From positions 1 through 54,279 of IMG/VR virus record IMGVR_UViG_3300049892_000052: a stretch of 54,279 nucleotides of DNA; one strand, given 5' to 3'. The stretch is from a virus (Duplodnaviria > Caudoviricetes). Under the pieces are notes generated by a model. The model saw only the letters and a list, made by a program, of their open reading frames with translations, was not told the origin of the DNA and made no database searches. Made by a program: the position numbers and the translations under genes. Positions 1 through 22,100 of this stretch are shown piece by piece (positions within the stretch are counted from its first letter, which is position 1; every line of letters begins with the position of its first letter).

Positions 1-127
1 GCGAGACTGAGGCACTGGGACTGACGGAACTTGACGGACTCTGGCTTAGCGAGACTGAGGCACTGGGACTGACGGAACTTGACGGACTCTGGCTTAGCGA
101 GACTGAGGCACTGGGACTGACGGAACT
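1..127. repeat. Perfect 48-nt tandem repeat (about 2.6 copies, 16-aa Ser-rich unit)
   Basis: gcgagactgaggcactgggactgacggaacttgacggactctggctta starts at 1, 49 and 97. Confidence 0.9.
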
Positions 128-1672
128 CGATGGGCTCTTGGATAGTGAAATCGACGCTGAGGGCGACACCGAGCTTGATGGGCTTTGGCTGAGTGATACG
201 CTCGCACTCGGGCTCACGCTGCTCGATGGGCTCTTGCTGAGAGAACTTGAGGCACTCGGACTGACGCTCAGGGACGCGCTGGCGCTCGGACTCTGGCTCA
301 GACTGACCGACGCTGAGGGGCTAACGCTACTGGATGGGCTGACAGATGCCGATAGTGACGCGGACGGACTGACGGAACTGGACGGACTCTGGCTGAGTGA
401 AATTGATGCCGACGGCGAGACACTACTGGACGGACTGGTGGAAGCGGAGAGTGACGCGGACGGGCTCACGGAGCTAGACGGACTCTGGCTCAGCGACGCA
501 CTGGCACTCGGGCTTACAGATGCGCTTGGACTCTGACTCGCGGAGTCTGACGCAGACGGACTTACCGACGGACTCATGTTGGAGTTCGGCGCCGTCAGAT
601 GAACCCATGTGACGCTGACTTGTTGCTCGTTAGCAATCAACCAAACGGACAGGTCCGACCAATCCGTTACTGCATCTCGTTCGCCTTGGATCAGCACCCA
701 CCCATACGTTTCTAGGGCCGTGGGATAGACCGTGCGACTTGAAATGAGCGTGGTTCCTTCGCGCAGTTCGATGCGAAGTTCGGCCGGCCCAACAGATGAT
801 GGTGAGGCGCTCGCGGAGGGGCTGGTGCTCAAGCTAGCCGAAGCACTCGGGCTGACGGAACTTGACGGACTCTGACTGAGACTAATCGATGCGGACGGGC
901 TTACTGAGCTTGATGGGCTCTTGGATAGCGAGATGGACGCGGATGGTGAGACCGAGCTGGATGGACTCTGGCTCAATGAGATCGAGGCCGACGGGCTAAC
1001 TGAGGCGGACGGACTCTGGCTCAAACTGCTCGACGCCGATGGGCTGGTCGAGCTTGATGGGCTCTGGCTCAATGAGCCGCTGGCACTGGGACTGACCGAG
1101 CTTGACGGGCTCTGGCTGAGTGAGACCGAGGCCGACGGTGAGACCGAGCTTGATGGACTCACACTGAGCGACGCCGATGCCGAGGGGCTAACAGAAGACG
1201 CGATAGTAAAGGATAGACTCGCTGAGGGACTGACACTCAGCGATGCCGAAGCTGATGGGCTCACGGAACTCGACGGACTCTGGCTCAATGAGCCGCTGGC
1301 ACTGGGACTGACCGAGCTTGACGGGCTCTGGCTAAGTGAGACCGAGGCTGACGGACTGACACTGCTCGACGGACTCTGACTCAGGCTAATTGACGCCGAA
1401 GGACTTTGACTCAGACTCGCGGACGCGGACGGACTGGTGGAGCTAGACGGACTGGTGGAGCTAGACGGACTCTGTGTGAGGGACGCGGACGCCGAGGGCG
1501 ACACACTCAGCGACGCGGACGCCGACGGACTCTGACTCAACGACGCAGACGACCCCGCAGCTGCCGGTGTAAGCACCTGCGGCAGCTTCCAGAGGGACGA
1601 CCGGTACGACGGGAATCTCCCGCGTCCTCCCGGTGCGTGGCGCCGTGGGCGCGTGTCTGAACGTCGGGCCAT
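1..1672 (-). CDS. Ser-rich repeat virion protein, runs off the left window edge (3'-truncated)
   Basis: Missing from the ORF track because no stop is in the window. ATG at 1672 reads MARRSDTRPRRHAPGGRGRFPSY, then (SxSxSP)n repeats interrupted by one globular segment AELRIELREGTTLISSRTV...VSVTWVHLTAP (about 578-795). Confidence 0.85.
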   Translation of the reverse strand, partial: MARRSDTRPRRHAPGGRGRFPSYRSSLWKLPQVLTPAAAGSSASLSQSPSASASLSVSPSASASLTQSPSSSTSPSSSTSPSASASLSQSPSASISLSQSPSSSVSPSASVSLSQSPSSSVSPSASGSLSQSPSSSVSPSASASLSVSPSASLSFTIASSVSPSASASLSVSPSSSVSPSASVSLSQSPSSSVSPSASGSLSQSPSSSTSPSASSSLSQSPSASVSPSASISLSQSPSSSVSPSASISLSKSPSSSVSPSASISLSQSPSSSVSPSASASLSTSPSASASPSSVGPAELRIELREGTTLISSRTVYPTALETYGWVLIQGERDAVTDWSDLSVWLIANEQQVSVTWVHLTAPNSNMSPSVSPSASDSASQSPSASVSPSASASLSQSPSSSVSPSASLSASTSPSSSVSPSASISLSQSPSSSVSPSASLSASVSPSSSVSPSASVSLSQSPSASASLSVSPSASSSLSKSPSSSVSPSASVSLSQSPSSSVSPSASISLSKSPSSSVSPSASVSLSQSPSSSVSPSASVSLSQSPSSSVSPSASVS

Positions 1673-1675
1673 AGT

Positions 1676-2962
1676 TTAGGTGGCGCTTTCTGAACGACTC
1701 ATGCCGTTCCCGACTCGAATACGACTGGTGCCGTCCGGCTTCGGTGCCCAAGAATGCCGACACAAGAACACCGCAGTTGTGAGCCCGATGGTGCCGCCCA
1801 CGGCATGCACGAGTTGCCAATTGGGTTGCGCGCCGGCGTTGAATGTGATCGGGGTGTTCAGAATTGTGAACCCTGCGTTAGTGGGTGCGGCCGGAACAGA
1901 TTGTGATACGACGGTATTGGCGCCATTGTTACGCAGACGAAACGACACGGCCCCATCAGTAGTGCCCGTGGCGCGAAAATTGGCTTCGACTATCGTCAGA
2001 GGAACGGGCAGTGAAAATCGGACCTGCGACTCCGCATACGCTCCAGAAAACTGGGTCGAATGAATGAACAGTGGGGCGTAGTATGTCCCAACAGTCACGA
2101 CTGCACCAGACCCGATGCCGAACATCGTGAAATCGGCGGATTCCCATCGCATGACATAATTCAGTTGCGTCATTGTGATGGAGTTACTCACGCCCGATCC
2201 GGTGGTGACTCGTGTCTTGAGGTAGTCCCCATATCCAAACGTCACGATGTTCACGTCGTCTGTGACGGCCGTCGTGGACCCTGCCGGGATGCTGGCGGTA
2301 ATTGCGGTCGCAACGCTATTTTTCATGAGCGTAATAACGGTGGTGCTGGGTCGAGCATTGGCGGTCATGGCACAACGGAGATGGGAGATGGCGCCACGGC
2401 AGAGCATTGGCGCAACGCCCGTGCCGTCTGTCAGCGACGTCGCACTCCCTCCAAGTCCGGCCGAATACGCTTGGTCATAATAATCGGTTGACGCGCCACT
2501 CCACCCCACACGGCCGGTCCCGTTGCGGTTGCACCCCACTAAATGAAATGGCTGGTCAGTGCTTTTGCACCACATACCGAGGACGTCAACTCCAAGAGAC
2601 CCCGTCGTCCCCCCCGTTACGACTTTCCACGCGGCGGTGTCGCCGGCCGCGTAGGTTGCGGACACCCCACCGTCAAGCGTCACAAGCGTTGTCGCGCCCG
2701 CTGGAAACGTCACCGCGACCGCGGTATCCGCACTGTTCTTTTGCAGGGTCACCGTGGACGTCCCATCGAGTGTATTCAGTTTGGGAAAAAACGAGAACCG
2801 TTGGACCCGCTGCGGAAATGGGATCGGACGCACCGCGGACGTGTCCACCGTCACAACCGGGGGCCCCGTAGCCGAGGTCGTCTGTTCTCCGTAGTGATAG
2901 TAGGCCGTCACGCCAAACACTTGGGCGGTCTGGACGATGTTGGACATACACAGGAGTTCCAT
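1676..2962 (-). CDS. Putative virion accessory protein with tandem beta-sandwich repeats
   Basis: 428 aa. Internal repeat TVTLQKNSADTAVAVTFPAG / VITLMKNSVATAITASIPAG / SFRLRNNGANTVVSQSVPA. TAATG overlap with the upstream stop. Confidence 0.7.
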   Translation of the reverse strand: MELLCMSNIVQTAQVFGVTAYYHYGEQTTSATGPPVVTVDTSAVRPIPFPQRVQRFSFFPKLNTLDGTSTVTLQKNSADTAVAVTFPAGATTLVTLDGGVSATYAAGDTAAWKVVTGGTTGSLGVDVLGMWCKSTDQPFHLVGCNRNGTGRVGWSGASTDYYDQAYSAGLGGSATSLTDGTGVAPMLCRGAISHLRCAMTANARPSTTVITLMKNSVATAITASIPAGSTTAVTDDVNIVTFGYGDYLKTRVTTGSGVSNSITMTQLNYVMRWESADFTMFGIGSGAVVTVGTYYAPLFIHSTQFSGAYAESQVRFSLPVPLTIVEANFRATGTTDGAVSFRLRNNGANTVVSQSVPAAPTNAGFTILNTPITFNAGAQPNWQLVHAVGGTIGLTTAVFLCRHSWAPKPDGTSRIRVGNGMSRSESAT

Positions 2963-3939: not shown

Positions 3940-6030
3940 TTAACTGCCGCTTCGGAATTGAATATAGAGGGTGACCGGTCCATCGAGCGGCGTGCCGATG
4001 CCGGTCAATTTCAACTTACACGTATCTTCTGTAGGATCAACCCCGGAACGAATCCAATCGTTTGGGTCGGGCACAAACGGTTCGTCCACGCACTCCCACA
4101 AGGTTGTTCCCGTGCTAGGCGTCCATGATCCCGGTGCGAGATCGCTGACGGGATACGCATGGGCGCCAGGTCCTTCCGACGGTGAAATGCTCGCAGAGGG
4201 AGATGTTGACCCTGACGGGCTAATTGAGCTAGACGGGCTGACCGAACTCGACGGACTCTGGCTGAGCGACGCCGAGGCGGATGGGCTGGTCGAACTCGAT
4301 GGCGATTTACTTAGAGAACTGGACGCCGAGGGACTGATAGAACTCGATGGACTGATACTCTGACTGATCGACGCACTTGGACTCTGGCTCAGTGACGCCG
4401 AGGCCGACGGCGATACGCTGCTGCTCGGACTGATGCTGGCGGACGGACTAACACTGGCGGAATCCGAGGCACTGGGGCTAACGGACGGACTGGCGATATC
4501 CTGCGCTCGGAACGTGATGACTGCAATGGTGCGCTTCGGATTCGGCGGCGGACTTGGACTCGCAGAAATGGAGGCACTCGGACTGGTCGACGCTGACGGA
4601 CTCTGGCTTGCAGAGGCGGACGCGGAGGGACTTACACTCGCGCTCGGGCTAATCGACGGACTGACGATATCAACGGCCCGGAACGTGATAACCCCAATGA
4701 CGCGCTTTGGTTGGGGTGGGGGACTTGGACTGGCGGAGATCGACGCCGACGGACTGACGGAACTCGATGGGCTTTGACTCGACGAAATCGACGCACTCAA
4801 CGACGCGCTTGGGCTCTGGCTCAGCGAGACTGAGGCCGACGGACTCACACTACTCGACGGGCTAATCGAGGGGCTGGCAATATCGACCGCCCGGAATGTG
4901 ATAACTCCGATGACGCGCTTCGGTGGCGGCGGTGGACTCGGACTGGCGGAGATACTCGCACTAGGACTCACGCTGCTCGATGGGCTGACGGAACTCGACG
5001 GGCTCACCGATGCTGAGAAAGACGCGCTCGGGCTCTGCGACGGGCTGGGAATATCTACCGCACGAAACGTGATGACGCCGATGACCCGCTGCGGATTCGC
5101 CGGCGGGCTGGGACTTGCACTCAGGGATGCAGACGGACTGACGGAGCTAGACGGGCTCTTGCTAAGACTGGACGACGCTGACGGACTTTTGGAGAGCGAA
5201 CTTGAGGCCGATGGACTGACAGAACTGAGTCCAGTTGCGGTGAACGAAAACTGTGGCGCGTTGAGCCATCCCTGAATTTGGTCCTTTAGGTCGATAGGGT
5301 ACGACCCGGCGGTTGGGGCTTCTCCGGCGCCAATTTGAGCATAACACTCATTTCCGCTGACCCACGTTGACGCTCGTGGCGATCCGTTGAAATAGACTGT
5401 CGGCGGCCCTGCGCTGTTTGTGAGCGCGGACCCCGTCGTAAACAAATGCAGTTCAAACGCAGTGCTACGTGGCCCGCTGGCGGGGTTAATGTAGTCGGGC
5501 CAGACGCCCGCACCAGAGGGGCTCGCGGACGCCGAGGGACTGACGCTCGACGAGAAGGACGCCGAGGGACTGACGGAACTGGATGGACTTGTAGTGGCAC
5601 TGGCCGACGGGGAGGGACTCTTGGAAGCCGACAGTGACGCCGATGGCGACTGACTTAGAGAGATAGAACTGGCTTCGGTTGGGCTGGCACTCGCACTCGG
5701 ACTTTCACTGGCGCTGTCTGATGCGGATGGTGTGGGGGACGGGGTGTTGAGCGGGTCCGCTGTAAATTGGACCGTCCCATCCGCCATCCCATCCAACGCA
5801 TCTTCAACTTGGACGTTATAGTTTCCTGCGGTCGCAATATCACCAGCGGAAATGCTGCAATGACACTCGTTGTCCCCATCTTTTGTAGTGGACTTCGCGC
5901 CGCCGTCGAACCAGATTGTCGGCCCGCCGTTATCGAGCGTGAAGGCGTCGCCGCTCGTATAGACGGTGAGGACGAACCCGGAGTTGCGTTCTCCGTTGGT
6001 GGGAGAAATGCTGCTAATAGCGCGGGCCAT
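3940..6030 (-). CDS. Ser-rich scaffold protein: two IPT/TIG-like domains, four KRVIGVITFRAVD-type motifs, C-terminal partial domain
   Basis: 696 aa. Ig-like segments ISSISPTNG...QFTA and DYINPASG...FSFTA separated by SxSxSP linkers. Confidence 0.8.
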   Translation of the reverse strand: MARAISSISPTNGERNSGFVLTVYTSGDAFTLDNGGPTIWFDGGAKSTTKDGDNECHCSISAGDIATAGNYNVQVEDALDGMADGTVQFTADPLNTPSPTPSASDSASESPSASASPTEASSISLSQSPSASLSASKSPSPSASATTSPSSSVSPSASFSSSVSPSASASPSGAGVWPDYINPASGPRSTAFELHLFTTGSALTNSAGPPTVYFNGSPRASTWVSGNECYAQIGAGEAPTAGSYPIDLKDQIQGWLNAPQFSFTATGLSSVSPSASSSLSKSPSASSSLSKSPSSSVSPSASLSASPSPPANPQRVIGVITFRAVDIPSPSQSPSASFSASVSPSSSVSPSSSVSPSASISASPSPPPPPKRVIGVITFRAVDIASPSISPSSSVSPSASVSLSQSPSASLSASISSSQSPSSSVSPSASISASPSPPPQPKRVIGVITFRAVDIVSPSISPSASVSPSASASASQSPSASTSPSASISASPSPPPNPKRTIAVITFRAQDIASPSVSPSASDSASVSPSASISPSSSVSPSASASLSQSPSASISQSISPSSSISPSASSSLSKSPSSSTSPSASASLSQSPSSSVSPSSSISPSGSTSPSASISPSEGPGAHAYPVSDLAPGSWTPSTGTTLWECVDEPFVPDPNDWIRSGVDPTEDTCKLKLTGIGTPLDGPVTLYIQFRSGS

Positions 6031-6101: not shown

Positions 6102-7283
6102 TTATGCGTTCCATGGTAAGCCATAGACGCGGTATTCGGCTGTTTGGTTCCCCGCACTGACAATACACCACGTGTAGACTTCGGGGGTGGAGGGGCCCGG
6201 CGCGTAGATACCGGCCTGGAAAACTTCTCCAGGCGGCACAGAGGCCGACGACGCCCACGCGGACCAATCGGCGCCTTCCCATACACGAACAGCGGCCGGC
6301 GCGTTGGACGACGCGATGGTGACCGTCACGGCAATATCGACGCCCGAAAGTGTCGTATTGGCCGACGGTTCGTATTCCGTTTCCTTGTCCGAATTCGTGA
6401 CCGGGTCAAAGGAGAACGGATCGGGTTCGGCATCCGACGCGGACGCCGATGGGCTCACGCTTGCGGAATCTGACGCGGACGGACTGACGCTACGGCTTTC
6501 GGACTGTCCTTCCGGCGGGGTGCTCGGCGACGCGGACGCTGACGGACTCATTGACGACGACTCGCTGGCCGTCGGACTCACGCTGGCGCTGCTACTGGCC
6601 GATGGGCTCACGCTGCTCGACGGACTCTTACTCATTGACGTCGAAGCAGACGGACTCACGCTGGCACTAGAACTACGGTGCACCACGGACATGACCGCGA
6701 CGTTGTTAGTCAAGTATTGTTCGACGTATTTGCTCTGAAGATACTGCGTCTGTTTGGTATTCTGCCCGACTTCGACCCAGCCTGAACCGTTCGCCCACGC
6801 TTCAGTATCCGGGGAGAGGCCAACAGCAAAGAGAATTTGCTTTTCAAATGTCGTATCGAACTGTGCAGACGTGAGCGTGTCCAATTGTGTGTAGGTGAGA
6901 GCGCCATGCACATTCACGGGGTCGCTGGTCGTCACCACACCTTGGACTTCGGTGAGCGTCATGTCCCACACACCGACGTGGTTACCACTCAACGCGACGG
7001 TGACGACGGCGGACCCGGACGCATCCAGATTCCACGCATACCACCATTCAAAACTGTAGTTTTCGTGTTGCGCTCGGTCGATCATGAGCGCCTTCTTCCA
7101 TCGCGTGCTGCCAAGAGAATCGCTGACGCCGGTAATGAGAACGCCCGTGGGATTCGCGAAATGAATCCCCATGAGCAGAAGATTGCCCGCGTTCACCGCA
7201 AATGCGTCGCTCACAAACGAAGCTCCGCCCACCCCCGTGGCGACGGTCTTACTTGCGAAGTGGACAACGTTTGCGTTTTCCAT
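6102..7283 (-). CDS. Virion accessory protein: N-terminal beta domain, Ser stalk, C-terminal PDPFSF Ig-like domain
   Basis: 393 aa, three-part architecture visible in the translation. Confidence 0.75.
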   Translation of the reverse strand: MENANVVHFASKTVATGVGGASFVSDAFAVNAGNLLLMGIHFANPTGVLITGVSDSLGSTRWKKALMIDRAQHENYSFEWWYAWNLDASGSAVVTVALSGNHVGVWDMTLTEVQGVVTTSDPVNVHGALTYTQLDTLTSAQFDTTFEKQILFAVGLSPDTEAWANGSGWVEVGQNTKQTQYLQSKYVEQYLTNNVAVMSVVHRSSSASVSPSASTSMSKSPSSSVSPSASSSASVSPTASESSSMSPSASASPSTPPEGQSESRSVSPSASDSASVSPSASASDAEPDPFSFDPVTNSDKETEYEPSANTTLSGVDIAVTVTIASSNAPAAVRVWEGADWSAWASSASVPPGEVFQAGIYAPGPSTPEVYTWCIVSAGNQTAEYRVYGLPWNA

Positions 7284-7292
7284 TGGGATTCC

Positions 7293-8210
7293 TTACGACC
7301 ACTTGAAGGACAGGACATTGAATGTCGCAGCCTGCCCACCGACGGTAACTTCCATACTCTTGTCCGCGGCGTTTTCTTCAGGCGACAAGACGCGCACTTC
7401 CAAGATGTCGCCCGGATAGAACTGTTCTGAGGTGCTCCAGCCCGACCAGGCGCCGTCGTGGTAGACACGCAGTTCGCCTTCGCCCGCGGTCCGGGATGCG
7501 GTAACCATCGTATCGAATCCGGCGGGGAACGCATCGGACGTTGCGTATTCCGGTTCGGGCGGCACGCCCGGGTCCATCTGCCACGTTGCGGGAGAGAACG
7601 ACCACGGATCGGCCGTTGCGTCGGACGGGGTGGGCGACGGGGTTGCAGACGGAGTGGACGAGATTGACGGGGACTCCGACGGCGAATCGGACGCTGAGAA
7701 CGACGACGACGGGCTGACGCTCGGCGACGGGCTCTTGCTGGCCGACTTTGACGACGACGGGCTGACCGACTTGGACGGCGTGGTGGACACCGATGCGCTC
7801 GGCGAGGCGCTGCCTGAGAGGGACGCCGACGGACTCTTGGACGCGCTCGGACTCTTAGACGCACTCGGTGACTGTGAGCGCGATGGGGACGAGACTTCGA
7901 CGCTCAGATAGAAGCGGTCGTTGCTCCCATTGACGAAACAGACGGACGATCCATAGGGCAGCGCAGTATCAATCCAAAGTGATCCCGGCCGTGCGGCCGC
8001 GACGTGGTCAATGTATTGCCCCCGGAGATAGCGCACGTCTTTGTTGGAGCAGACGTAGAAGACGTTATTGCCCTGTATCCACGGACTGCCGTATTTGGCG
8101 GACGGCACATTGGTCGACAGCACGCCCACCATCGCATAGTCGTTGCCGTCTGCGGCGACGTAATGAAATGTGTTCGTGTCGACCCACCAACTGCCGGCTT
8201 TCTTTGCCAT
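7293..8210 (-). CDS. Virion accessory protein: GSxWxD repeats, Ser stalk, C-terminal DPWSF Ig-like domain
   Basis: 305 aa. GSWWVD / GSPWIQ / GSLWID repeats precede the SPSxS tract. Confidence 0.75.
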   Translation of the reverse strand: MAKKAGSWWVDTNTFHYVAADGNDYAMVGVLSTNVPSAKYGSPWIQGNNVFYVCSNKDVRYLRGQYIDHVAAARPGSLWIDTALPYGSSVCFVNGSNDRFYLSVEVSSPSRSQSPSASKSPSASKSPSASLSGSASPSASVSTTPSKSVSPSSSKSASKSPSPSVSPSSSFSASDSPSESPSISSTPSATPSPTPSDATADPWSFSPATWQMDPGVPPEPEYATSDAFPAGFDTMVTASRTAGEGELRVYHDGAWSGWSTSEQFYPGDILEVRVLSPEENAADKSMEVTVGGQAATFNVLSFKWS

Positions 8211-13800: not shown

Positions 13801-16800
13801 TGATGTTGCCACGCTGGACGTAGTTATCGACGTTGACGCCATCGAAGAACGCATAGAGTGACGACTTGGGCTTCAGTCCGTCACCCGAAAACACGATATC
13901 CCGTTCACGAACACGATGCACGATGGACGTATCGACGATCCGGTTGCCCAACGACGCGGTTGTGCTGGTGACTTGATATTCGTAGGTCGTCCCCTGACGC
14001 TCGTAGTTTGTCTGCGTCGTGATATCCTGCCACGACAGTTCGGTCATCGCGCCGAGACCGTGTTCCTGCGGCGTCCATCCGGGCGGCGTGAACCAAGCAC
14101 GTTGCGTTTGGTTTGCGACGATGCCGGACCACGTCTGATCCCATTCACCCCAATTGGTAAACGACGGCATGGTGGCGTTGACCCACGCTTGCGTCGGGCC
14201 ACCCAAGTCGATGACTTGCGCGGGGACGGACGTCGTATCCTTCCACGTATCCACAGCGGGTGAGAGCTTCAGTGATCCGTAGAACGCGGCGACGTCAAAT
14301 GGGTTGACGGACACCGAGTGCGTCGCAAACGGCTGCGTAATGAACGCTTCTGTCGTATATGTGGGGATCGCCATATCCCCGACAACCGTGATGCCATTGG
14401 ACGTGCCGGTGTTGGACGTGTCCGCCGTGAATAGGGTCGCAAAGGAACGGAAGCCCGTGCGAAGTTCGCGGTTCTGCACGTCAATCGACGCGGTGAAGTC
14501 CTCCGATGCGACATCGCCGACGTCGGCGCCGTGGAAGCTGTCGACCAGGATACCATTCTTGAAGCGGTCGTTGCCGTCCTGGTCAAAGATATCCTGGTCC
14601 TTCGTGATACGTTCCAGTGAGTTCAGCGCCGTGTAGTATTCCAAATGGGCGACACGATTTTCGACCTTGGAAATGTCCTGCATCGTATACCGCTTGTGGT
14701 CAAACGTGGTCAGGACGGTGGTCGTGGGCACCCCATTCGCATCGACGAGTGTGTAGGGTGGAATCGTGATCTGATAGATCAACAGACTGTCCGGGTCGTT
14801 CGTCGGGGGCTCCGGCGTAAGCGCGGGCTTGCCTTCGATGATGTGGAACAGCCCGTCGTAGCCGATCCCGATGCGGTCAATACGGCTGAGGTAGTAGTCG
14901 AAGTCGCCATACCAGACGCCATCAGACGTGGGGATGTAGTAGGAGTCGGTGCCCCCGTCAAGATACGTGGTTAGCGTGTCTGTACCGTCTTGTTCCGTGA
15001 CGGCGTTGTAGAGACCGTCCCCAACCGTGTTCGCGGTCCGCGCCGGACGGAAGTCCAACACGTCGCGGAGACTGACGGTGCGATTCGTGCGCGGGGACGT
15101 GTAGCTCGGGATTGCGTCATACGTCATGCCCGCGGCGACACTATTCGCACCAAGGAAGCTGTCGACCGTGGCGGGGCCCCGCCCAACGTGTGCAAACCGG
15201 TCAAACAGGATGAGCAGACGCCCATCCGGGCTAATCGTGCGGCTAGCGTCGCGATTGCAAATGACGCGAGCATATTCATACGTGTTGTCGCGCTGTCCGT
15301 TGTCGAGCGTGAACAGCGATGTGACGTCCGTGGCGGTCGTCAAGTCGGCAAACGCCGTATTGGTGCTCTGGTAGAAGATGGTGACGTTGTGGACGTCCGG
15401 CACCTTCAAGGTATACGCGAATCCGGCCGTCGCATTGAGATTGAAGTAGGCAATCTGTCCGTCGTCAAGGGACGACGTATTACCCGTCAGGTCGACGCTG
15501 CTGTTTGCGAGAACGAGCGTCTTTTCACGGATGGGGTACGCATGGGTCGTGGCGCGAGCGACGGCATGGAAGGACCGTGTGGCCGCGTTGGCGGACCCGT
15601 GATGATACGTGAACTGAAGTGTGTGCGACCCCGCGGTCGTCATCGTTATGGACGTCAAACAACGATGGGACGCATTGGGGGACGTGCCGAACTGCACAAT
15701 CTGTCCGCGGCCGCCGGCATCGTTCGTGGTATCAAAGACGACGAAGTAACGTTGTGCGGTTTCTGCGGACAGTGATCCCGTGGGGAAGGAGAGCAGCGGG
15801 TCCGTAATGGACAGAGACACGGTCGCGTTCGCGCCTGTGAGGGTGATACTTGTGTTCGGCGCCAGTTGCACCCACGTATCCCATGTCGTATTGGCAGCAA
15901 TGGAGTTCGCGACGATGAACGACGGGCCAAACTGGTAGATCAATGACGGGTCCGGGCCTGTGATGATAGTGTTCTGCCCGGCATCGTCCTTACCGCCCAG
16001 CAACGTGACGTCCGCTTGGAAGAACAGGTTGGACGAGTAGGGGGTGGTGTAGGTGCCGCTGTAGGAGTTGTTTGCTCCTGCAAAGCAGTCGATATCCTTT
16101 GGTTGGTACAAGAGGCGGTACTGTGTATTCGCGTTCGGCAGTGCGGGGAGATATTCCTTCAGCGTCAGTTCAACGTTCGCTCCGTTCGGCGCGTAGTTGA
16201 CGACCGTGAACGTGCCGGTGACGGGAGAGGACGCGCCGCTCAGCACAACGGTCGCACCGTTAGCGGCACTCGCTACGCCCGGAAGTCCATTTGCGATAGC
16301 GGCTGTGCAGACGACCGCGCCGTTCGTCAGCGTGGCAGAAACCAAATTGCCCGTGAGCGCATCGAACGCGGTGTCGTAGAAGAACATCTTGTAGACGGAC
16401 GAGTTCGCCCACTGGTCGTTGTTCGCGGGCACATCGACCGTTTCCAGCAAGCGGACCTTCGCGGTGCCGATGCGAGAGTAGTTGTACGCGGCTACGGACG
16501 CTGTGTTGATCGCGGACGCATTGACGCAGTGCAAATCGACGGTGGACGTATTGGCAAAATACTTCTGCGGGTCGTAGGCAGCGACGCGAGACACGAGTGC
16601 ATAGTTCCCGACTTGCAGGGCCAGACCTTCCGCATTGACCGAGGCGATATCCCGTCCCTTGCGAATGAGGAGGTCCGTGGGTTCCGTTGTCGCGACTTCC
16701 CAGCCACGCACGTAGGCTTTGCCAGGGCCGAGCGAGAGATGGAAGTTTGATGTGTTGCTAACGTCTGTGTTTCCGATGACGGGACGGAACTGCGTGATCA

Positions 16801-17755
16801 CATAGTCGCCCGATTCGTCGAAGGTGCGGCGCGCCAGAATGTCGTTCAGTTCGCTCATCTTGACGAAGCGTTCCCGAATGACCGTTCCCTTGCGAATGAC
16901 GCCCTGTTCAATCGTGGCGAGCGTGATGAAGTTTGGTCCAACGTCGGCGGACAATCCCCGTGTGTCGAGTTCCAGACGCAGACGGAGGCGGTGCGCGCCC
17001 GGGGCGCCCAAGTTCGCCGGGTCAAGGAGCGTGGACCCAACCACGTCGTCCAGTTCGTCAATGACTTCTTCGATGATGTTGAGTCCGACAATCGCATCGG
17101 GACGGTTGTCGAATTCGCTGACGACAATCGTTTGTGCTTTGCAGCGGACGAAGAAGCCCGAGACAAAGAACACCCCTTCTTCGACACTGAATACCGATGC
17201 GCCAGAGAACGTGTCCGCGTTGGCGCCAAACGTGGCATTGGCCGTCGAGTCCGGGGAGTTGACGACGCCACTCGTGGGGAACGTCTGCTGCGAGTCGTAT
17301 TTGAAAATGAGGTAAGCGTCCGGGGTCGCGCCTTCGTCGGGCGCCACGTATTGGCGGACTGTTGCGTGAGTCGTGGTGTTGGCGACGTCGTAGATTTTCA
17401 GCCCGAGATTGTTCGTGCGGTCAAAGAATGCGGATACGTTGTCCGTCAACAGCGTCTTGCCACTGACGACGTTCGTATCGAGCGCGATTTCACCCCCAAG
17501 AACGGGGCTGCCGTTCTTGAAGTTGGCCGTACCGAGCCGCTGGAGCTGTGCTTGCAGAATGGTCTGAAGTTGCGTCAGTTCGCGAGACTGTACCCCATAG
17601 CGCGGGCGGAACAGAATGCGATGAAAGTCGAACTCCTCCCCCAACGTCCGCGTGACGGACGTATTGGAGTTGGCCGCATAGTAGTCGTCGTGGTACGGCG
17701 CACTCCGAAGGGTCTGCGTTGCGGTATTGCTCAGAGAGGCTAGGTCTAGTGGCAT
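10886..17755 (-). CDS. Large baseplate-associated structural protein (DUF4815 / VrlC-like)
   Basis: 2289 aa. PYHDDY, RILFRP..VQSRELTQLQTILQ, LARRTFDESGDY, KRYTMQDI, RFKNGILVDSF, DPLAETF, PRIANFRAIAL. Confidence 0.9.
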   Translation of the reverse strand: MPLDLASLSNTATQTLRSAPYHDDYYAANSNTSVTRTLGEEFDFHRILFRPRYGVQSRELTQLQTILQAQLQRLGTANFKNGSPVLGGEIALDTNVVSGKTLLTDNVSAFFDRTNNLGLKIYDVANTTTHATVRQYVAPDEGATPDAYLIFKYDSQQTFPTSGVVNSPDSTANATFGANADTFSGASVFSVEEGVFFVSGFFVRCKAQTIVVSEFDNRPDAIVGLNIIEEVIDELDDVVGSTLLDPANLGAPGAHRLRLRLELDTRGLSADVGPNFITLATIEQGVIRKGTVIRERFVKMSELNDILARRTFDESGDYVITQFRPVIGNTDVSNTSNFHLSLGPGKAYVRGWEVATTEPTDLLIRKGRDIASVNAEGLALQVGNYALVSRVAAYDPQKYFANTSTVDLHCVNASAINTASVAAYNYSRIGTAKVRLLETVDVPANNDQWANSSVYKMFFYDTAFDALTGNLVSATLTNGAVVCTAAIANGLPGVASAANGATVVLSGASSPVTGTFTVVNYAPNGANVELTLKEYLPALPNANTQYRLLYQPKDIDCFAGANNSYSGTYTTPYSSNLFFQADVTLLGGKDDAGQNTIITGPDPSLIYQFGPSFIVANSIAANTTWDTWVQLAPNTSITLTGANATVSLSITDPLLSFPTGSLSAETAQRYFVVFDTTNDAGGRGQIVQFGTSPNASHRCLTSITMTTAGSHTLQFTYHHGSANAATRSFHAVARATTHAYPIREKTLVLANSSVDLTGNTSSLDDGQIAYFNLNATAGFAYTLKVPDVHNVTIFYQSTNTAFADLTTATDVTSLFTLDNGQRDNTYEYARVICNRDASRTISPDGRLLILFDRFAHVGRGPATVDSFLGANSVAAGMTYDAIPSYTSPRTNRTVSLRDVLDFRPARTANTVGDGLYNAVTEQDGTDTLTTYLDGGTDSYYIPTSDGVWYGDFDYYLSRIDRIGIGYDGLFHIIEGKPALTPEPPTNDPDSLLIYQITIPPYTLVDANGVPTTTVLTTFDHKRYTMQDISKVENRVAHLEYYTALNSLERITKDQDIFDQDGNDRFKNGILVDSFHGADVGDVASEDFTASIDVQNRELRTGFRSFATLFTADTSNTGTSNGITVVGDMAIPTYTTEAFITQPFATHSVSVNPFDVAAFYGSLKLSPAVDTWKDTTSVPAQVIDLGGPTQAWVNATMPSFTNWGEWDQTWSGIVANQTQRAWFTPPGWTPQEHGLGAMTELSWQDITTQTNYERQGTTYEYQVTSTTASLGNRIVDTSIVHRVRERDIVFSGDGLKPKSSLYAFFDGVNVDNYVQRGNIIELASLLRSTAPTYRVGQTIYVEKPLRGTATVLAGNTTVTGVDTLFEYDLVVGQIVKFVLGASFVFLVVDSITSNTQFRTSTAGANTLSGASVRTYVPVTITEVSPRFDSANVVYTLKVARAQRDSSVDQVPPYPINAGSVSPVKLAGDTSNNSLGASVVVINELGLQPAVNITGATCFSGIVRGYNANSQLIRLDLDVTEAEVANNVTALRIVGGPGAGQSQTITTYWAGNNTALVSGTFPGLVVNQSIYSIGRLQSDGFVDNSNPAVAGRAGCASGVFHLQNGAFATGSRLFRLTDDASNRPTSATTSAESSYEASGLTVTQQATSVTSRSAFPQRVGPAQESFSVTDHSVQQIALGYVDPLAETFLVDAAAYPQGVFIASVDLCFAAKPDDDIPVVVELRNVVNGYPSSQDLVPCTSADGLARVTLRNDQVTVITSATPNIADPLTVTTFTFAAPVHLLPGKEYAIVVRSDSSDYRVYTAELGGNVLGTADTKVSSQPYAGSFFKSQNASAWTESPFEDLMFRLNRAKWTGTATTPQVAHLVAHAVPPTANAIVDSIEFYPHDVHFSDLTGASYTLGVKPMNTVTEDLTGQSALYYDVHPSEWRPLAARSLLQGYDEIELAENIIALAPVSAANTVELISALSTWSADVAPYIDLKKLNVLCLHHLTNDMGLQADDIMFTDPGVGYLPTLQDTTVNTVATSTTVELSNGVVDFTTLLAPGDYLVLRDNIAVTVASVNADGLRFYCTANVGATLTDAIWWTHGNSNVSLTFSGGEGTGAAGYATIGRDGRVSNVVLTADGSGYIGMPTVTAAPVANVASYTATQNTAVLTYLSELDTHGGNALTRYFTRPVTLADGFEARDIVVYFDANRPLGTKFYVYYKVLGADQETERFEDQPWRLMTQITDDSTFCTKWEQFKEFEFHTPDDRALNADDDTTDKFKTFAVKVVMATDNPVYTPRIANFRAIALDT

Positions 17756-17767: not shown

Positions 17768-19150
17768 TTATCCGCCGAAAGGCAGCACAATTTTGATTTC
17801 TTCGAAGTTGTCGGGAGTGCGTTGCACGGGGGCGTGATGGGACGCGAAGATGATCGTGCCCGTGTACGGCAGCAGTTCGGGAAGGGCCACGTTTGCAATG
17901 AATCCCTGCACCGTATTGGTGGCCGCGTCTTTGACGGATTCTCCATCCACGAACGGCGTCACTTGTCCAGCCGCGTTGACGGCCGTCAAGCGCAACACGT
18001 TGTTTCCCGCGGCGTTTTGAATGACGTCGACCACGAGCCCTGACGGGGCCACGGCCAGATTGGCACTATAGGCCACGTTCGCGTTATACATCACGTCGTC
18101 CGCGACAAACGCGCCGACATTCGCACTCAGCGTCAAGTCATACGTCTGATGGTAGAAATCGTTGTTGGCAATTTCTTCCGAATCGCGCTCGATAGGATTG
18201 AGAACAAGCCCCAACCGACGGAACTCGTTGCTGGTCGTCAGCACGTCGCCCACACGATTGTCCAGCAGCACACTAATCATAATGTGCTTGGCGTCCAGTT
18301 CCGACACGAGGTCGTATCCATGATTAGGATAGGGTGGGATGATGGCCCGCACCGTTGCGGCGGTAGCTCCCGACTGATACACATTGATGCTCGTCACTTG
18401 GGTGTAACGGGCCCCGCCGTCGACCAAACTGATGGCCGTGAGGTTGTTGCCCGTCAACGTGATCGACGAGTTGGAAATCGTGGCGCCCGCGCCGTCGCCG
18501 ACGACCGTGGCAATAATCGGTTCGGCCGGGTCGTAGCTGCCCCCATCTTCGACGACTAACGGAACGTCTATCGCAAGTCGCCCCGCATTGTTCGCAGCGT
18601 CCACTTGCACCGCGGATTCCACATAGACGGGGACCCACGCATTCGTCAGGTACTTGTCGGACGTGCCGGAAGGGAGACTGTAGAGATACTTCCACACGTA
18701 GCCGTCAGCCGTCGTCTTGACATACTGATGACTGCCATTCGCGCCGGAACTTGGCGGATCAACGCTATTGGCATTGTTCGCGTTCCATAGACAGCTATAC
18801 ACGCTGTAGTTGTTGGCGTCCAGCACCACACTCGGGGTCGTGTTCGCCGTGTCGTCGTATTGTGTATAGACGGTGTTCGTTGACCAGTCCGTCCGCGCAA
18901 TAACAAACGTCATGTTCGCAACGCGACATCGCTTTGCGGACAGCATATCTCTCCAGAAGTCGTAGGTGACGCTCTGCGGAACGTCCAACACTGCGGGAGG
19001 GGTGTCCCCACTGGGCCACGGCTGCGAACGCCCCACGAACAAATACAGGGCGAGCGGGCTGCCGTTGCCGGTCAGTTCCCATGCTTGGAGATGGTTCAAA
19101 AACGTCTGCCCAAGCGACGACCGGTATTGTTGAGTGAGGAGACTTGGCAT
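17768..19150 (-). CDS. gp8: Baseplate wedge subunit gp8-like
   Basis: LYLFVGRSQPW, TADGYVWKYLY, FRRLGLVLNP, EEIKIVL; synteny. Confidence 0.88.
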   Translation of the reverse strand: MPSLLTQQYRSSLGQTFLNHLQAWELTGNGSPLALYLFVGRSQPWPSGDTPPAVLDVPQSVTYDFWRDMLSAKRCRVANMTFVIARTDWSTNTVYTQYDDTANTTPSVVLDANNYSVYSCLWNANNANSVDPPSSGANGSHQYVKTTADGYVWKYLYSLPSGTSDKYLTNAWVPVYVESAVQVDAANNAGRLAIDVPLVVEDGGSYDPAEPIIATVVGDGAGATISNSSITLTGNNLTAISLVDGGARYTQVTSINVYQSGATAATVRAIIPPYPNHGYDLVSELDAKHIMISVLLDNRVGDVLTTSNEFRRLGLVLNPIERDSEEIANNDFYHQTYDLTLSANVGAFVADDVMYNANVAYSANLAVAPSGLVVDVIQNAAGNNVLRLTAVNAAGQVTPFVDGESVKDAATNTVQGFIANVALPELLPYTGTIIFASHHAPVQRTPDNFEEIKIVLPFGG

Positions 19151-19156: not shown

Positions 19157-19163
19157 TATTTAG
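19157..19163 (-). promoter_or_regulatory. Late promoter CTAAATA, 6 nt before the gp8 ATG
   Basis: ctaaata ggatat ATG. Confidence 0.75.
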
Positions 19164-19178
19164 AGTGCCTGCCAGACG

Positions 19179-22100
19179 TTACTGCGGCGTGTCGTCCATC
19201 TTCGTGGTGATAGAGAAGTCTGCATATTCGACCCCGACATGGAGGGTGCAGGTGACTTGGGTGCTAAAGTTCGGCGAACTCAGCATTTCCACGTATACCG
19301 TATCACCCGGATTGACGGTGCTGGGGCCATACTGCCATGCTCCAAAGTTGATGCGATATTCCGAGGTGTTGTTCACGTCGCGGTCCATGCTGATGGCCAC
19401 AGGCTGGTCGATGCCCGTTACTGTCATCTGATCTCCATACGTCGTAGACAGCTCAGCGTCAACAACTGGCGTAAAGGAGAATATATCGGGGTCCTGGTCC
19501 GACGGCGACGCACTTGGACTCGTGCTGGCGGAATCGGATGGAGAATCCGACGCGGATTCAGACGCGGACTCACTAGCGGACTGCGACGCACTAACCGACG
19601 CGGACGGCGACTTGCTCAAACTAATGCTCGCCGACGGGCTGATAGAGCTTGAGGGGCTCGTGGTCGCGCTGGCGGACGCCGACGGGCTCACGCTGCTTGA
19701 CGGACTCTGGCTGCCAGAGGGGGATACGCTGAGCGATGACGAATGTGACGGACTGACTGACGCCGACGGACTCTGACTAATAGATGCGCTGCTCGACGGA
19801 CTCTTGCTCGCCGAGAGGGATGCTGATGGGCTCTTGCTGAGGGAGACTGACGACCCTTCAGGAATGCCACTCGGACTTGGACTGTCGGACGCAGACGGAC
19901 TCACGCTGCTTGACGGACTCTTACTGGCGGACCCAGAGGCGCTGGTGGACGCACTGGGGCTAACGGAACTTGATGGGCTCTGGCTCGCCGATTTCGATGC
20001 ACTGGGCGACACGCTCGGAGAGTCCGACGCGCTCGGCGACAGACTCGGCGACGGGGACATGACGTAATGGTTCCATACAGGGTCTATCGTGATGAATGGT
20101 TGTAGAGCGCCCGTCGCGGTGGACCCGTCTAGCACTTCCACGAATCGACCAATGAGCTTGAACCCCGCTGGATGGATCAATTTCTTGAAGAGAGCTTCAT
20201 AGCGGGAGAACGATTCACCCACACGCACCATGTAAGTGTAGTCGTTGTAGGTGTCCGCGTCTTGCAATACTTTGTCCGCACTGAGGAAGCTGTCTGTCGT
20301 GAGGAAGCGCCCGGGATATTGACTCTGCGCGCCCAAGACGGCTGTGGCTTCCACGTCGTCCCCTTGGTGGATGACGGTGATGCCGATTTGGTTCGCGTTG
20401 TTGTATCCGACTCCCGAGTTGGTCACTTCAATCTTCGTGACCTGTCCTGCCGAGGACGACACGGAGAGATTGGCGGCCGTAAAGAGGTCCACGTTGCCGC
20501 CAGAGTCTACAATGATCCCGCCGGAGGACAGGTGCTGAATGGCTTGGGCGCGAGCATCGAGTCCGTCCGCTTGCACGAGAGGCGTCTGACGATAGTTCTG
20601 CCCTGGTGCGGTAATCGTGACTTGTCGAATCTTTCCGTAGGCTCGATTGCTTTGCACATCGACATTCGCCACCAGCGCAGTGGAAATGAGGCTGAACGCG
20701 ACATTGCTGGCCCCACCAACATTCGCTCGGGCCGTGAGATACGTGTTGTTCGTGACCCCACGGACGACAAACTGCACGCCGGACGACAGCCGCACATGAG
20801 CACCCGGGCGCAGGGTGTCCGAGAACAATGTCCCGATACCGGTAATGACGGCGGACCCGTTGCTCGTCATCGTTCCCAATTGCGGAACGCCCGTACCGTC
20901 GGCCTTCACGGTCGTCCCGACAACAACCGTGCCCGTCAAGTCCCGCAGAAAGAGTGTATTCGACGCAGAGACAATGACGTTCGCTTTGACGCCTGCCGTC
21001 GTTTTCGTCGTCACCAAGTCGTAGGGGCCGGTCAACTGAAAGACGCCATCGCCGTTCGCAAACGTCGTGGGCGTCGTGGGGATGACCAACACCGCGGCAT
21101 TCGCTAATGCCACAGTGGATTCGTCCGGGGCCGTGAACACCCACGGGTGCATGAAGGGCGCTTGTTCTGTGGCGGACAACATTGTGGAGAGGACGCCCGA
21201 CGTCAAATTCATGACGGGTAGCCCCGTATTGGCGTTGGGCCCAATGATGGCTTCCCAGCCGACTTGTGCGCCATAGCTCGCGACGTCAATTTGCCACGAA
21301 GGGGGTGTCACGAACGGCTCAATCGTGAGCAGGAGACCAAACGTGAACTGGTCTTCCATAATCACGTAGGACAGCTCGCGACTGGGCTGCTTTTCCGTGA
21401 GGAAGAACTCGGGGGCGTTCAACTCACTGGATTCGAGCAAGAGATTGTTGATGACTTGACTGACGTGAGCCGCGGCGCCGCTGCCGGTCGAACTGATGAA
21501 GGTAACGGCGGTATTCGTGATGTAGCCCGCGCCGCCGTCATTGACGTAGATGCGGGAGATCGCTTCATCGCCCACGGCGGCGACTCGTCCGGTGGCGCCG
21601 TAGCCCCCGCCCTGTCCGGGGCCTTGTGTGAAAACAACCGTATCACCAATCGCGCAATTGCTCCCCCCATTTTGAATTGTCACGCCGACGACGACACCCA
21701 GGACTTCTGTATGGATGACCGTATCGCTGTCGATGTTGTAGAGGTCTTGTCCGGGGGTGAACGTCCCGACGATATTATCTGGCTTCAGGACCAGTTCGTT
21801 GACAACCAGATAGTCCCCGAAGGCGCGCCCATAGATGTTCGTGGTGACACTTTCAACTTCCGCTTGTCCCGTGGACGTGACGATGCGTTGCCCGAGATAA
21901 TACGTTTCGACGTCGCCGTTGGGTTCGCCATTCGTGGGAACCCCAACTTTGATCGTCGTCGGCGCGTACCAATGGGCATCGGACGCTCGCAGCACGTCTT
22001 CGCGGGGGAAGTGGACGTTAGCTTCTTCATCGAAGACCGTGCGGAAGAACCAGCGGACGGCATCGACCGTGCCCTTTTCCTGATAGAACTGACGCAGAGA

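Follow-up and report, generated by a model that had tools for sequence, protein, structure and literature searches.

Five genes of an uncultivated freshwater T4-like phage encode long stretches of protein in which serine occupies every second position. The window, that is, the whole stretch of 54,279 nucleotides that was analysed, contains the genes of a baseplate region, and one of the five encodes a gp7-type protein of the baseplate wedge. This raised the question of what such tracts contribute to the virion, and whether they are glycosylated stalks, spacers between domains or something else.

Serine alternation in gp7 and four further ORFs

Defining a tract by a density of 8 or more Ser in 20 residues, we found Ser-x alternation in five co-oriented ORFs on the minus strand. 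Across the whole window, as assembled, the tracts comprise 1,267 codons and 620 serines (49%). The set consists of gp7 and four ORFs, termed A, E, F and G, which lie downstream of gp8 and a VrlC-like gene. All five are present where the initial annotation had placed them. Its total of roughly a thousand codons was too low, the actual figure being about 1,270, and the gp7 tract that it had taken for the C-terminus is followed by a folded domain of 101 aa. No more tracts of (S-x)6 or longer were present in any frame of the window past base 20100. The features are as follows.

2..1672, minus strand: ORF A, 557 aa or more (the contig ends before its C-terminus); a 60-aa element (596-775) between two Ser tracts, 776-1570 and 2-595 (aa 35-299 and 360-557, 463 aa)
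3940..6030, minus strand: ORF E, 696 aa; two IPT/TIG-like domains, six Ser tracts (415 aa), four 'PPxPKRVIGVITFRAVDI' elements and a 73-aa C-terminal domain
6102..7283, minus strand: ORF F, 393 aa; N-domain aa 1-194, Ser tract 6420-6701 (aa 195-288, 94 aa), C-domain 6105-6419
7293..8210, minus strand: ORF G, 305 aa; N-domain aa 1-98, Ser tract 7620-7916 (aa 99-197, 99 aa), C-domain 7296-7619
10886..17755, minus strand: VrlC-like / DUF4815 virion structural protein, 2289 aa (phrog_358; PF16075)
17768..19150, minus strand: gp8 baseplate wedge protein (PF09215, E 2.2e-10; phrog_438, E 8.6e-72)
19179..22451, minus strand: gp7-type baseplate wedge protein, 1090 aa, made up of core, Ser tract and C-terminal domain (phrog_17744, PF23786, position between gp6 and gp8)
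19182..19484, minus strand: gp7 C-terminal Ig-like beta-sandwich domain, aa 990-1090 (101 aa), from an AlphaFold2 model
19485-20072, minus strand: gp7 Ser tract, aa 794-989, 196 aa with 97 Ser
20073..22451, minus strand: gp7 conserved core, aa 1-793 (36-52% identity to 44 metagenomic proteins)
22452-24383, minus strand: gp6 (phrog_219, E 8e-131)
43292-44299, minus strand: GT-B (GT4) glycosyltransferase, acceptor unassigned (PF13692, PF00534, phrog_2170)

The order gp6-gp7-gp8 is kept on one strand, with the genes abutting. gp7 matches the family phrog_17744, 'baseplate wedge subunit' (E 1.4e-45), and Pfam PF23786, Baseplate_wedge (46.1 bits, cut-off 27), and gp8 is 28% identical to a cyanophage gp8. 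For the VrlC-like protein, matching features in a Pelagibacter-phage record and in 2 of the 3 cyanophage records listed bear the annotation 'putative VrlC protein', 'virion structural protein' or 'structural protein'. A profile built from 23 gp7 core sequences matched no PDB chain at E<=0.01; equivalence to T4 gp7 therefore rests on family models and synteny, and the gp7 C-terminus could not be placed in the baseplate. From their position and orientation, A, E, F and G are probably structural proteins and virion components.

The pattern within the tracts is highly regular. Serines two residues apart were observed 534 times, compared with 302.7 ± 8.6 in 1,000 composition-preserving shuffles (shuffle maximum 330), and adjacent Ser-Ser pairs were depleted, with 108 observed against 302.7 ± 9.3. 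The spacing from one proline to the next peaks at 6 (57 cases) and 10 residues (53 cases), indicating a unit of 16 residues (48 nt), approximately SPSxSxSPSxSxSxSx, and TRF returned the same period. Small or hydrophobic residues (P, A, V, L, I) fill the x positions and Thr is rare, at 2.4%. These counts uphold the earlier observation of alternating serine with regular proline.

The underlying DNA is far more diverse than the peptide. All six serine codons are used in the tracts, and among 133 SPSxSx hexamers the 18 copies of SPSASA have 18 DNA versions and the 29 copies of SPSSSV have 23. Copies of the same hexamer share a mean nucleotide identity of 0.63-0.75. Repeat units compared as DNA mostly fall between 60 and 79% identity and share very few long exact matches, and the four copies of a 195-nt repeat in ORF E show 60-74% identity to the reference copy. 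Identical hexapeptides thus arise mostly from different DNA, which points to selection at the protein level, as had been proposed from the synonymous variation.

Support from the assembly differs between the genes. In Logan contigs from the probable source run (X1), one contig of 22.6 kb spans the gp7 tract, which extends to 20072, without differences to base 20000, the limit of the comparison. For A, E, F and G the same set of contigs breaks the tracts into small fragments with over 30 alternative joints, so the copy number and order of their units come from the present assembly alone and their lengths are uncertain. Within ORF E, bases 4861-5484 (624 bp) are reproduced exactly in a run from an independent study.

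End domains and the gp7 C-terminus among relatives

In gp7 the tract joins the conserved wedge core, in frame, to the end domain. AlphaFold2 predicts this domain as an Ig-like beta-sandwich of eight strands with a mean pLDDT of 94.9, and the PDB offers only generic matches to the model, of an Ig/PapD/MSP-like kind (TM 0.4-0.6). The C-domain of ORF F is related to that of gp7 (E 3e-5) and to that of ORF G (E 3e-8), which is also homologous to the gp7 end domain. A profile made from these three window copies retrieved 475 proteins at E<=1e-3, in which the domain often forms tandem repeats within large proteins. Eight of the top matches were compared with Pfam; one contained LRRs, one contained CBM96 and CBM2, and one gave only a sub-threshold Flp-pilin-like match. 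ORF E is built differently. Its residues 1-94 match the TIG family PF01833 (24.5 bits, cut-off 20.9) and residues 180-258 do so more weakly, and the tracts string these IPT/TIG domains together with other short folded elements. Four short beta-strand-like elements, KRVIGVITFRAVDI, lie between the tracts.

Most of the 44 gp7 homologues (at least 36% identity) stop at about 770-840 aa. Some continue beyond the core with LamG/ConA-like lectin, repeat-domain or His/Asp-rich modules, and the insertion point is directly past the conserved core end, ...HPAGFK.LG.FV.... A survey of gp7 homologues for serine-rich tails had been suggested in the initial annotation, and among the 13 closest IMG/VR loci, 12 of them informative, we found an SPSxS tract fused directly to the gp7 core in 7. 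Complete tails span 429 to 685 residues (681 aa in L008 and L009, 685 aa in L010 and 429 aa in L011/L013), whilst in L005 and L007 the contig ends before the tail does. The position is constant and the length very different. Sequence comparison identifies the gp7 C-terminus as an add-on site, at which the Ser-repeat arm is one alternative among several. The arm shares with the other add-ons of uncultivated T4-like phages the same insertion point and the character of a self-contained module that is lacking or replaced in relatives; it differs from the LamG/ConA-like, repeat-domain or His/Asp-rich tails that other relatives have.

The tails also change quickly. The gp7 cores of L008 and L010 are 99.9% identical, and their gp8 proteins 99.8%, with the distal part of the tail rearranged. 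In L008, L009 and L010 the tail reaches the stop codon without an end domain, so tethering a domain cannot be its whole function. An orthologue of ORF F, P0130, is 57% identical and has a tract 19 aa shorter, with the indels inside the tract. The homologue of the ORF G N-domain in L001 (21293-22108) has a His/Asp-rich tail in place of the Ser tract, which suggests that the anchor is the conserved part of the protein and the low-complexity arm is exchangeable.

Spacer arms, glycosylation and other readings

We lean, although only modestly, towards reading the tracts as protein-level-selected, non-globular Ser/Pro/Ala spacer arms on proteins of the baseplate periphery. The arms would be disordered or extended, and the end domains they carry would have a binding role. 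O-glycosylated serines are compatible with spacer arms and not required by them. Two observations count against this reading, namely the tails of L008, L009 and L010 that lack an end domain, and the strict two-residue period of the serines. A linker that had only to be flexible would not require this period, nor serine used nearly to the exclusion of Thr; such regularity suggests that something further constrains the sequence, be it modification or a regular extended structure.

Modification was central to the initial annotation, which described a probable glycosylated brush. The alternating serines would then be an acceptor array, O-glycosylated in the cytoplasm by a phage enzyme (the GT4 or one encoded outside the window), and the arms would be mucin-like stalks, stiff and resistant to proteases, serving to shield the baseplate or extend it. 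The period of two resembles that of Gram-positive SRR adhesins, and the SRRP-like proteins P0225 and P0249, which have the characteristic signal peptide, are among the word-sharing matches. The window does encode a GT-B enzyme of family GT4, and virion O-glycosylation has a reported precedent in mycobacteriophages (summarised in PMC12619734). We nevertheless find the glycosylated brush possible but rather doubtful. The GT4 is the sole glycosyltransferase found in the window, sits 23 kb from the nearest tract, and has conserved replication genes as neighbours, outside the structural module. At the IMG/VR loci that carry it, a phrog_461 gene is next in 15 of 15 and an exonuclease is present in 14 of 15, with a helicase-loader-like gene in 11 and gp32 in 8 where the contig extends that far. 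One relative, G006, keeps the GT4 (57-64% identity) together with a gp7 that has no tail and a G homologue with a His/Asp tail, and contains no SPS-type tract across its 71 kb. The similarity of the enzyme is generic, since by sequence it matches only MshA- and GlgM-like entries of the PDB (E 0.003-0.009), with no match to GtfA, and its NCBIfam matches are unspecific with scores far under the cut-offs. No PF00535 (GT2, which includes GT27-like enzymes) or GT-A enzyme was found in the window, which covers about 30% of the genome, and no PF00535 in five tract-bearing relative records, each only 10-30% complete, making this weak evidence. Glycosylation of the tract serines is thus neither supported nor excluded by the sequence data. 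Of the earlier proposal, the stalk is retained, as the tract lies between an anchor and an end domain; the probable glycosylation is not, given a single GT4 that is distant and is kept where there is no tract.

Alternatively, the serines could line one face of extended strands and drive a beta-rich or polar-zipper assembly within or between subunits, giving a regular fibre instead of a disordered arm. The strict period, the small or hydrophobic x residues and the four beta-strand-like elements of ORF E would fit such a fibre, which we nonetheless judge improbable. Frequent proline disfavours long beta-sheets, and here it recurs every 6 or 10 residues; length and order vary freely between the near-identical phages L008 and L010; and no model supports a fold, that of full-length ORF F being uninformative (mean pLDDT 32). 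Each wedge of T4 has gp7 as single chains, which leaves no obvious trimer partner. A different possibility is that the tract DNA shared by the five genes matters mainly as a recombination substrate, shuffling distal domains and arm length, with little function for the peptide. The same end domain does lie beyond the tract in three genes, phages whose cores are 99.9% identical have rearranged tails, and the assembly graphs contain many alternative joints among tract units. We think this very unlikely, because the units share so few long exact matches at 60-79% DNA identity, and the same peptides made from different DNA are the opposite of DNA-level selection on a substrate; the joints themselves may stem from related strains or assembler artefacts. 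To the idea that the tracts are misassembled low-complexity DNA, or a wrong frame or strand, we give scarcely any credence. It is true that the contig ends within the ORF A tract, its first 138 nt consisting of a 48-nt repeat (96% matches by TRF), that the Logan contigs are fragmented across A, E, F and G, and that parts of the opposite strand are open as well. Against an artefact, the tracts of gp7, F and G are in frame between conserved domains and those of E follow Pfam-detected TIG domains, the gp7 tract and part of E recur in other assemblies as described above, and the same architecture is present in seven independently assembled IMG/VR contigs and in proteins P0036 and P0130.

Relation to known serine-rich proteins and a possible role

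Gram-positive SRR glycoproteins (Fap1, GspB, PsrP, SraP) carry Ser repeats that are glycosylated by GT-B enzymes, and have an extended N-terminal signal peptide of the KxYKxGKxW type and a C-terminal LPxTG wall anchor. In common with the phage proteins they have long tracts with serine at every second position, almost without Thr, which bear small binding domains or lie beside them and are regarded as extended stalks. On inspection, the five phage translations contain neither the signal peptide nor the anchor. A GtfA/GtfB pair is absent from the window (about 30% of the genome), where one GT4 is the only candidate, and the ORFs scanned against Pfam and PHROGs gave no match to accessory Sec genes (SecA2/SecY2/Asp). 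Proline is regular in the phage unit and not typical of SRRP repeats, and the phage proteins would be cytoplasmically assembled baseplate components. The products of A, E, F, G and gp7 are not members of the SRRP family.

Polyserine and Pro/Thr-rich linkers join the modules of secreted carbohydrate-active enzymes, for example in Saccharophagus degradans and Teredinibacter turnerae. These too are Ser-rich, low-complexity spacers between independently folding, often carbohydrate-binding, modules, with diverse codons and lengths that vary between orthologues; the tracts of gp7, F and G lie between folding domains in the same way, and ORF E has its TIG domains. The linkers differ in being mostly homopolymer or PT runs of tens of residues, whereas the phage tracts, with their depleted Ser-Ser pairs and rare Thr, contain no such runs and extend to 94-265 aa each in the window and 685 aa in relatives.

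In mycobacteriophages, virion glycans are reported on the C-terminal ends of the subunits of capsid and tail tube (Freeman et al. 2023, Cell Host Microbe, as summarised in PMC12619734). In both systems Ser/Thr-rich extensions of virion proteins might be modified by phage-encoded glycosyltransferases; here the tracts are in gp7 and fibre-region ORFs and the glycosyltransferase is outside the structural module. The tail-tube-like ORF (32933-33763) has no Ser tract, in keeping with the lack of any past base 20100 in the window. The capsid gene lies outside the window.

Small Ig-like or TIG beta-sandwiches on the particle surface, presumed to bind glycans weakly, recall T4 Hoc and the model of 'bacteriophage adherence to mucus'. 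Hoc is on the capsid and has no Ser-repeat arm, whereas the domains described here, with putative binding, would sit on baseplate-region arms of 94-196 residues in gp7, F and G.

Taken as spacer arms, the tracts suggest the following model. The gp7 arm would begin at the end of the wedge core and hold the Ig-like beta-sandwich distally, F and G would follow the same plan with their homologous end domains, and E would string TIG domains along its arms. With at least six copies per baseplate and a tether contour of 20 to 60 nm, weakly binding Ig-like and TIG domains would gain reach and avidity for polysaccharide on host or particle surfaces. Binding through the arms would precede commitment by the fibres and baseplate. 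The sequence and length of the arms would be little constrained, and may change rapidly through rearrangement among the repeat units.

A serine-repeat gene block in a T4-like phage fragment

The 54,279 bases make up the entire record, and CheckV places its completeness at about 30%, suggesting a genome of roughly 180 kb. Its genes identify it as part of the genome of a divergent T4-like myophage. Beyond a block of gp6, gp7, gp8 and VrlC-like genes, the gene order continues with gp5-like, hub, tube and cap genes, followed by gp32, an exonuclease and other replication genes. The nearest cultured phages are cyanophages and a Pelagibacter phage, with protein identities of only ~28-32%. Against cultured phages, megablast of bases 1-20060 returned zero matches and tblastn of ORFs H and I found none. 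The public runs matching the window DNA are labelled as freshwater sediment and freshwater metagenomes and come from at least two studies; no RNA runs were among those listed for bases 1-8300. From gp6 through ORF A all genes have the same orientation and are tightly packed, and it is solely from this co-orientation and packing with the genes from gp6 onward that ORFs A, E, F and G are taken to be structural. Serine tracts, defined by a minimum of 8 Ser in windows of 20 residues, were found in five ORFs, at the positions given in the initial annotation.

Genes of the block and their serine tracts
2-1672, minus strand: ORF A, 463 aa of tract
3940-6030, minus strand: ORF E, 415 aa of tract
6102-7283, minus strand: ORF F, 94 aa of tract
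7293-8210, minus strand: ORF G, 99 aa of tract
19179-22451, minus strand: gp7 (phrog_17744, PF23786), 196 aa of tract at residues 794-989 (19485-20072)
minus strand: gp6 (phrog_219, E 8e-131)
minus strand: gp8 (PF09215, phrog_438)
minus strand: VrlC-like/DUF4815 protein of 2,289 aa (phrog_358, PF16075)

Together the five sets of tracts comprise 1,267 codons, 620 of them for serine, and no comparable tract was found in any frame of the other 34 kb of the window. Serine alternates strictly: 534 Ser(i)-Ser(i+2) pairs were observed against 302.7 +/- 8.6 when the same residues were shuffled, and only 108 adjacent Ser-Ser pairs against 302.7 +/- 9.3. The spacing between prolines has maxima at 6 and 10 residues, which together give a 16-residue, 48-nt unit that TRF also reports. 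Threonine contributes only 2.4% of tract residues, and just 5 Bacteroidota-type sequons, D-(S/T)-(A/I/L/V/M/T), were counted among the 1,267. The proposal of selection at the protein level was upheld. All six serine codons are in use, the hexapeptide SPSASA is encoded by 18 DNA versions in 18 copies and SPSSSV by 23 in 29, and copies coding for the same peptide share a mean DNA identity of only 63-75%; DNA repeat copies within the tracts are mostly 60-79% identical. Across all five ORFs the serine preceding proline is encoded by AGY in 109 of 133 SPSxSx units, with mostly TCN at the remaining serine positions. The minus-strand reading frame is secured by the position of the tracts: in gp7, F and G they are flanked on both sides by conserved domains in the same frame, and in E they come after Pfam-detected TIG domains.

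The window starts within the ORF A tract, and the records of three relatives (loci L005 and L007 and protein P0036) likewise stop within a tract. We compared bases 1-20000 with Logan contigs from three runs. In the probable source run a single 22.6-kb contig matches 7782-20000 with zero differences, so that the gp7 tract, whose end is at 20072, is covered as far as base 20000, and a second contig covers 1304-4263. A run from a separate study contains an exact copy of 4861-5484, including two of the E tracts, together with many non-repeat pieces. Otherwise, the Logan contigs carry the A, E, F and G tracts as short pieces, with more than 30 alternative joints among repeat units. The tracts are therefore real; how many units make up those of A, E, F and G, and in which order, is provisional, as these contigs do not fix it independently.

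Two further features of the fragment were observed. The heptamer CTAAATA occurs 11 times in the window against 1.16 expected, a count reached in 0 of 100 shuffles, and several copies lie a short way upstream of gene starts (gp8, ORF H, gp32, the ORF at 42315 and the HNH gene at 53497). The heptamer, similar to the core of T4 late promoters, is a candidate promoter element of the phage; TATAAATA, the T4 late-promoter motif itself, has 0 exact matches in the window.

Copies of CTAAATA in the window
Copies 1-6: 8929-8935, 19157-19163, 31931-31937, 31985-31991, 33038-33044, 37865-37871
Copies 7-11: 42324-42330, 44787-44793, 47113-47119, 50666-50672, 53512-53518

On the minus strand, 47456-53708 holds 22 tRNA genes with HNH endonuclease genes interspersed, and the array extends to the window end. 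It contains two tRNA-Pro genes (CGG, TGG) and none for tRNA-Ser, though serine accounts for 620 of the 1,267 tract codons. Within the cluster, the ORF at 50679-51209 carries the HAD domain of 'Swiss Army Knife' RNA-repair proteins (PF18143, E 7e-30).

Domain anatomy and turnover of the tracts among relatives

The gp7 tract had been annotated as the C-terminus of the protein; instead it joins the conserved core to a 101-residue end domain. The core closes with the near-invariant motif ...YNDYTYVVRV.ESFDRY...HPAGFK.LG.FV, and its profile gave zero matches to PDB sequences. The end domain is homologous to the final 105-108 residues of F and G (BLASTP E 3e-5 and 3e-8) and was modelled as an eight-stranded beta-sandwich with a mean pLDDT of 94.9 from a 24-sequence alignment. 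Its PDB neighbours are generic Ig-, PapD-, MSP- and FN3-like folds (TM 0.4-0.6, no E-value below 1e-3), and no Pfam model matches the domain itself. When 1.84 billion representative proteins were searched with a profile of the three copies, 475 matched at E<=1e-3, one of them in as many as 26 stretches. Among 8 top matches compared with Pfam, one contains LRRs, one CBM96 and CBM2, and one only a sub-threshold Flp-pilin-like match.

At its start ORF E has an IPT/TIG domain (24.5 bits against a cut-off of 20.9), followed by a second, weaker match, and it carries four short PPxPKRVIGVITFRAVDI elements with tracts between them. Such elements, short and hydrophobic, might act as an association motif or form beta-hairpin 'beads'. 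A 57-71-aa unit of serine tract plus element is present four times at 4408-5157; compared with the reference copy, its 195-nt DNA repeats show 60-74% identity. The N-domains of F and G match no named family. A homologue search with that of F recovered only ORF F itself, and in the Atlas both the viral clusters and the structural neighbours of this domain are unnamed. The full-length ORF F model had a mean pLDDT of 32, from an alignment of just 2 sequences, too low to inform on the tract.

A protein search with gp7 gave 68 matches, 44 of them at 36-52% identity. Most of these 44 stop at ~770-840 aa, where the core ends, and other matches add LamG/ConA-like or further modules after it. Only P0036 of the 68 has an SPSAS tract, which reaches the end of its record. 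The gp7 C-terminus is an add-on hotspot in this clade (P0004, P0006, P0010, P0017, P0026, P0029, P0030, P0037), with additions such as LamG/ConA-like lectin domains or a long array of ~90-aa repeats followed by a Gly-rich end. In IMG/VR, gp8 alone found no relatives, whereas the gp7-core alignment yielded 80 loci, 8 of which have an alternating-Ser tract of at least 30 aa. One of the eight, the distant locus L070, has a weak 37-aa stretch that is not of SPS type. The other seven all belong to the nearest 13 loci (38-49% identity), 12 of them informative since L006 is cut inside the core. The suggested survey of gp7 homologues thus found serine tails in 7 of 12 informative close loci, and in all seven the tract begins no more than ~15 codons from where the core match stops.

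Tract lengths in gp7 of close IMG/VR loci
L008: 681 aa
L009: 681 aa
L010: 685 aa
L011: 429 aa
L013: 429 aa
L005 and L007: cut by contig end

In L008-L010 the tract runs to the stop codon without an end domain, and L011 has a His/Asp/Cys-rich end (about 13850-14194). L008 and L010 are 99.9% identical in DNA across the gp7 core, 99.8% in gp8 and 97.6% in gp6, and their distal tails are rearranged. An ORF F orthologue, P0130 (57% identity), has indels within its tract. In the 71-kb relative G006, gp7 is tail-less and the ORF G homologue has a His/Asp-rich tract in place of the window's serine. The ORF G homologue of L001 (21293-22108) has a His/Asp-rich low-complexity tail at the position of the serine tract. 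Such His/Asp-rich, Cys-containing tails are possibly metal-binding arms. Upstream of gp6 in L011, with the gp5-like region on its other side, a 1,091-aa ORF (4373-7645) combines a Gly-rich N-terminus with a 443-aa SPSxS tract; in its L010 orthologue (6209-7360) the tract is only 53 aa. Of 8,000 candidates scored in a word-based search with the ORF A tract, 35 proteins reached E<=1e-10. Each contains between 125 and 417 aa of alternating Ser, in most cases with an N-terminal body before it and a small C-terminal domain after it; of ten scanned against PHROGs three have virion-type flanking domains and seven no match. Together with the IMG/VR relatives, these proteins indicate that the module is widespread in uncultivated material.

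Proposed glycosylation of the tracts

The initial annotation described the tracts as a probably glycosylated brush, by comparison with bacterial serine-rich repeat (SRR) adhesins. The tracts share the alternating-Ser hallmark of these adhesins and may function like SRR stalks, but the window proteins lack the GtfA/B pair, signal peptide and LPxTG anchor and the tracts are not members of the SRR family. The sole glycosyltransferase encoded in the window is of the GT-B/GT4 type (PF13692 and PF00534):

43292-44299: GT4 glycosyltransferase

GT4 adjoins an HNH gene and a B12-binding radical-SAM gene, and the nearest tract is 23 kb away. Homologues at 56-65% identity occur with the same neighbours in 15 IMG/VR loci, all with a phrog_461 gene downstream and 14 with the exonuclease; where the contig extends, a helicase-loader-like gene is present in 11 and gp32 in 8. 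GT4 therefore sits in a replication-gene neighbourhood. The radical-SAM gene (class B methyltransferase-like), which with GT4 and the HNH gene occupies 43292-46295, is present in two of these loci (L081, L082); the two enzymes could be a DNA- or sugar-modification pair.

None of the 15 loci has a tract within 10 kb of GT4, a distance to be read against the 23 kb in the window itself. All five GT4-bearing records examined are without gp7 (7-33% complete), and four of five gp7-bearing records are without GT4 (15-24% complete). The exception, G006, retains GT4 at 57-64% identity and has no SPS-type tract in its 71 kb, its two Ser-rich frames being antisense of an acidic ORF, which argues against a GT4 dedicated to the tracts. 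In the PDB, GT4 has weak, generic MshA- and GlgM-like matches (E 0.003-0.009) and no GtfA match, and its NCBIfam scores fall far under every cut-off. A six-frame search for PF00535 (GT2), positive in 14 of 14 control genomes, found none in the window or five tract-bearing relative records. With all these records only 10-39% complete, such absences count for little. We conclude that nothing in the data examined links a glycosyltransferase to the tracts. The glycosylated brush is thus unsupported, given the replication setting of GT4, the counterexample of G006 and the missing GtfA and GT2 matches. The strict period-2 serine pattern keeps modification a live possibility.

In its strongest form, which we consider unlikely, the arms would be the phage counterpart of SRR glycoproteins, O-glycosylated in the cytoplasm by the clade-conserved GT4 or by an enzyme encoded in the remaining 70% of the genome. 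Were this so, a T4-like virion would carry a glycan-coated baseplate brush, of ~200 to 685 residues on gp7, with its length rapidly tuned through repeat rearrangement. Viruses would then have invented the SRR-stalk principle independently, and no baseplate with glycosylation would have been described before this one.

Proposed spacer arms at the baseplate periphery

We read the tracts as exchangeable, fast-evolving, non-globular spacer arms at the baseplate periphery. The stalk part of the initial annotation gains support, both from the anatomy and from the comparison with relatives. The parts that are conserved, in gp7 the core and in F and G the N-domain, would act as anchors; the arm can be serine-repeat, His/Asp-rich or absent depending on the relative, and can end in an Ig-like domain, as in the window, or in nothing, as in the L008 group. 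By simple geometry we estimate a contour length of ~60 nm for 196 residues and more than 200 nm for 685, with a much smaller random-coil size. Such arms may provide reach, and avidity for weak glycan binding, a role suggested by analogy with phage Ig-like decoration domains and linker-tethered carbohydrate-binding modules.

The tracts differ from polyserine linkers in their depleted adjacent serines and their length, and from mycobacteriophage glycosylation in the proteins bearing the extension and the location of the enzyme gene. A full-text literature search, in which few subscription journals were represented, did not turn up any account of tracts like these in the virion proteins of phages. 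What stands out is the placing of an arm on a core wedge protein, and how clearly the relatives form a series. The pattern also offers a cheap, concrete test of virion glycosylation in phages outside Actinobacteria. If the arms are on the particle, the wedge protein would be a platform for exchangeable, fast-evolving projecting modules in a large group of uncultivated freshwater T4-like phages, serine-repeat arms of 200-685 residues being one such module. These arms, which cryo-EM averaging would miss, would alter how, and how far out, the baseplate first touches a surface.
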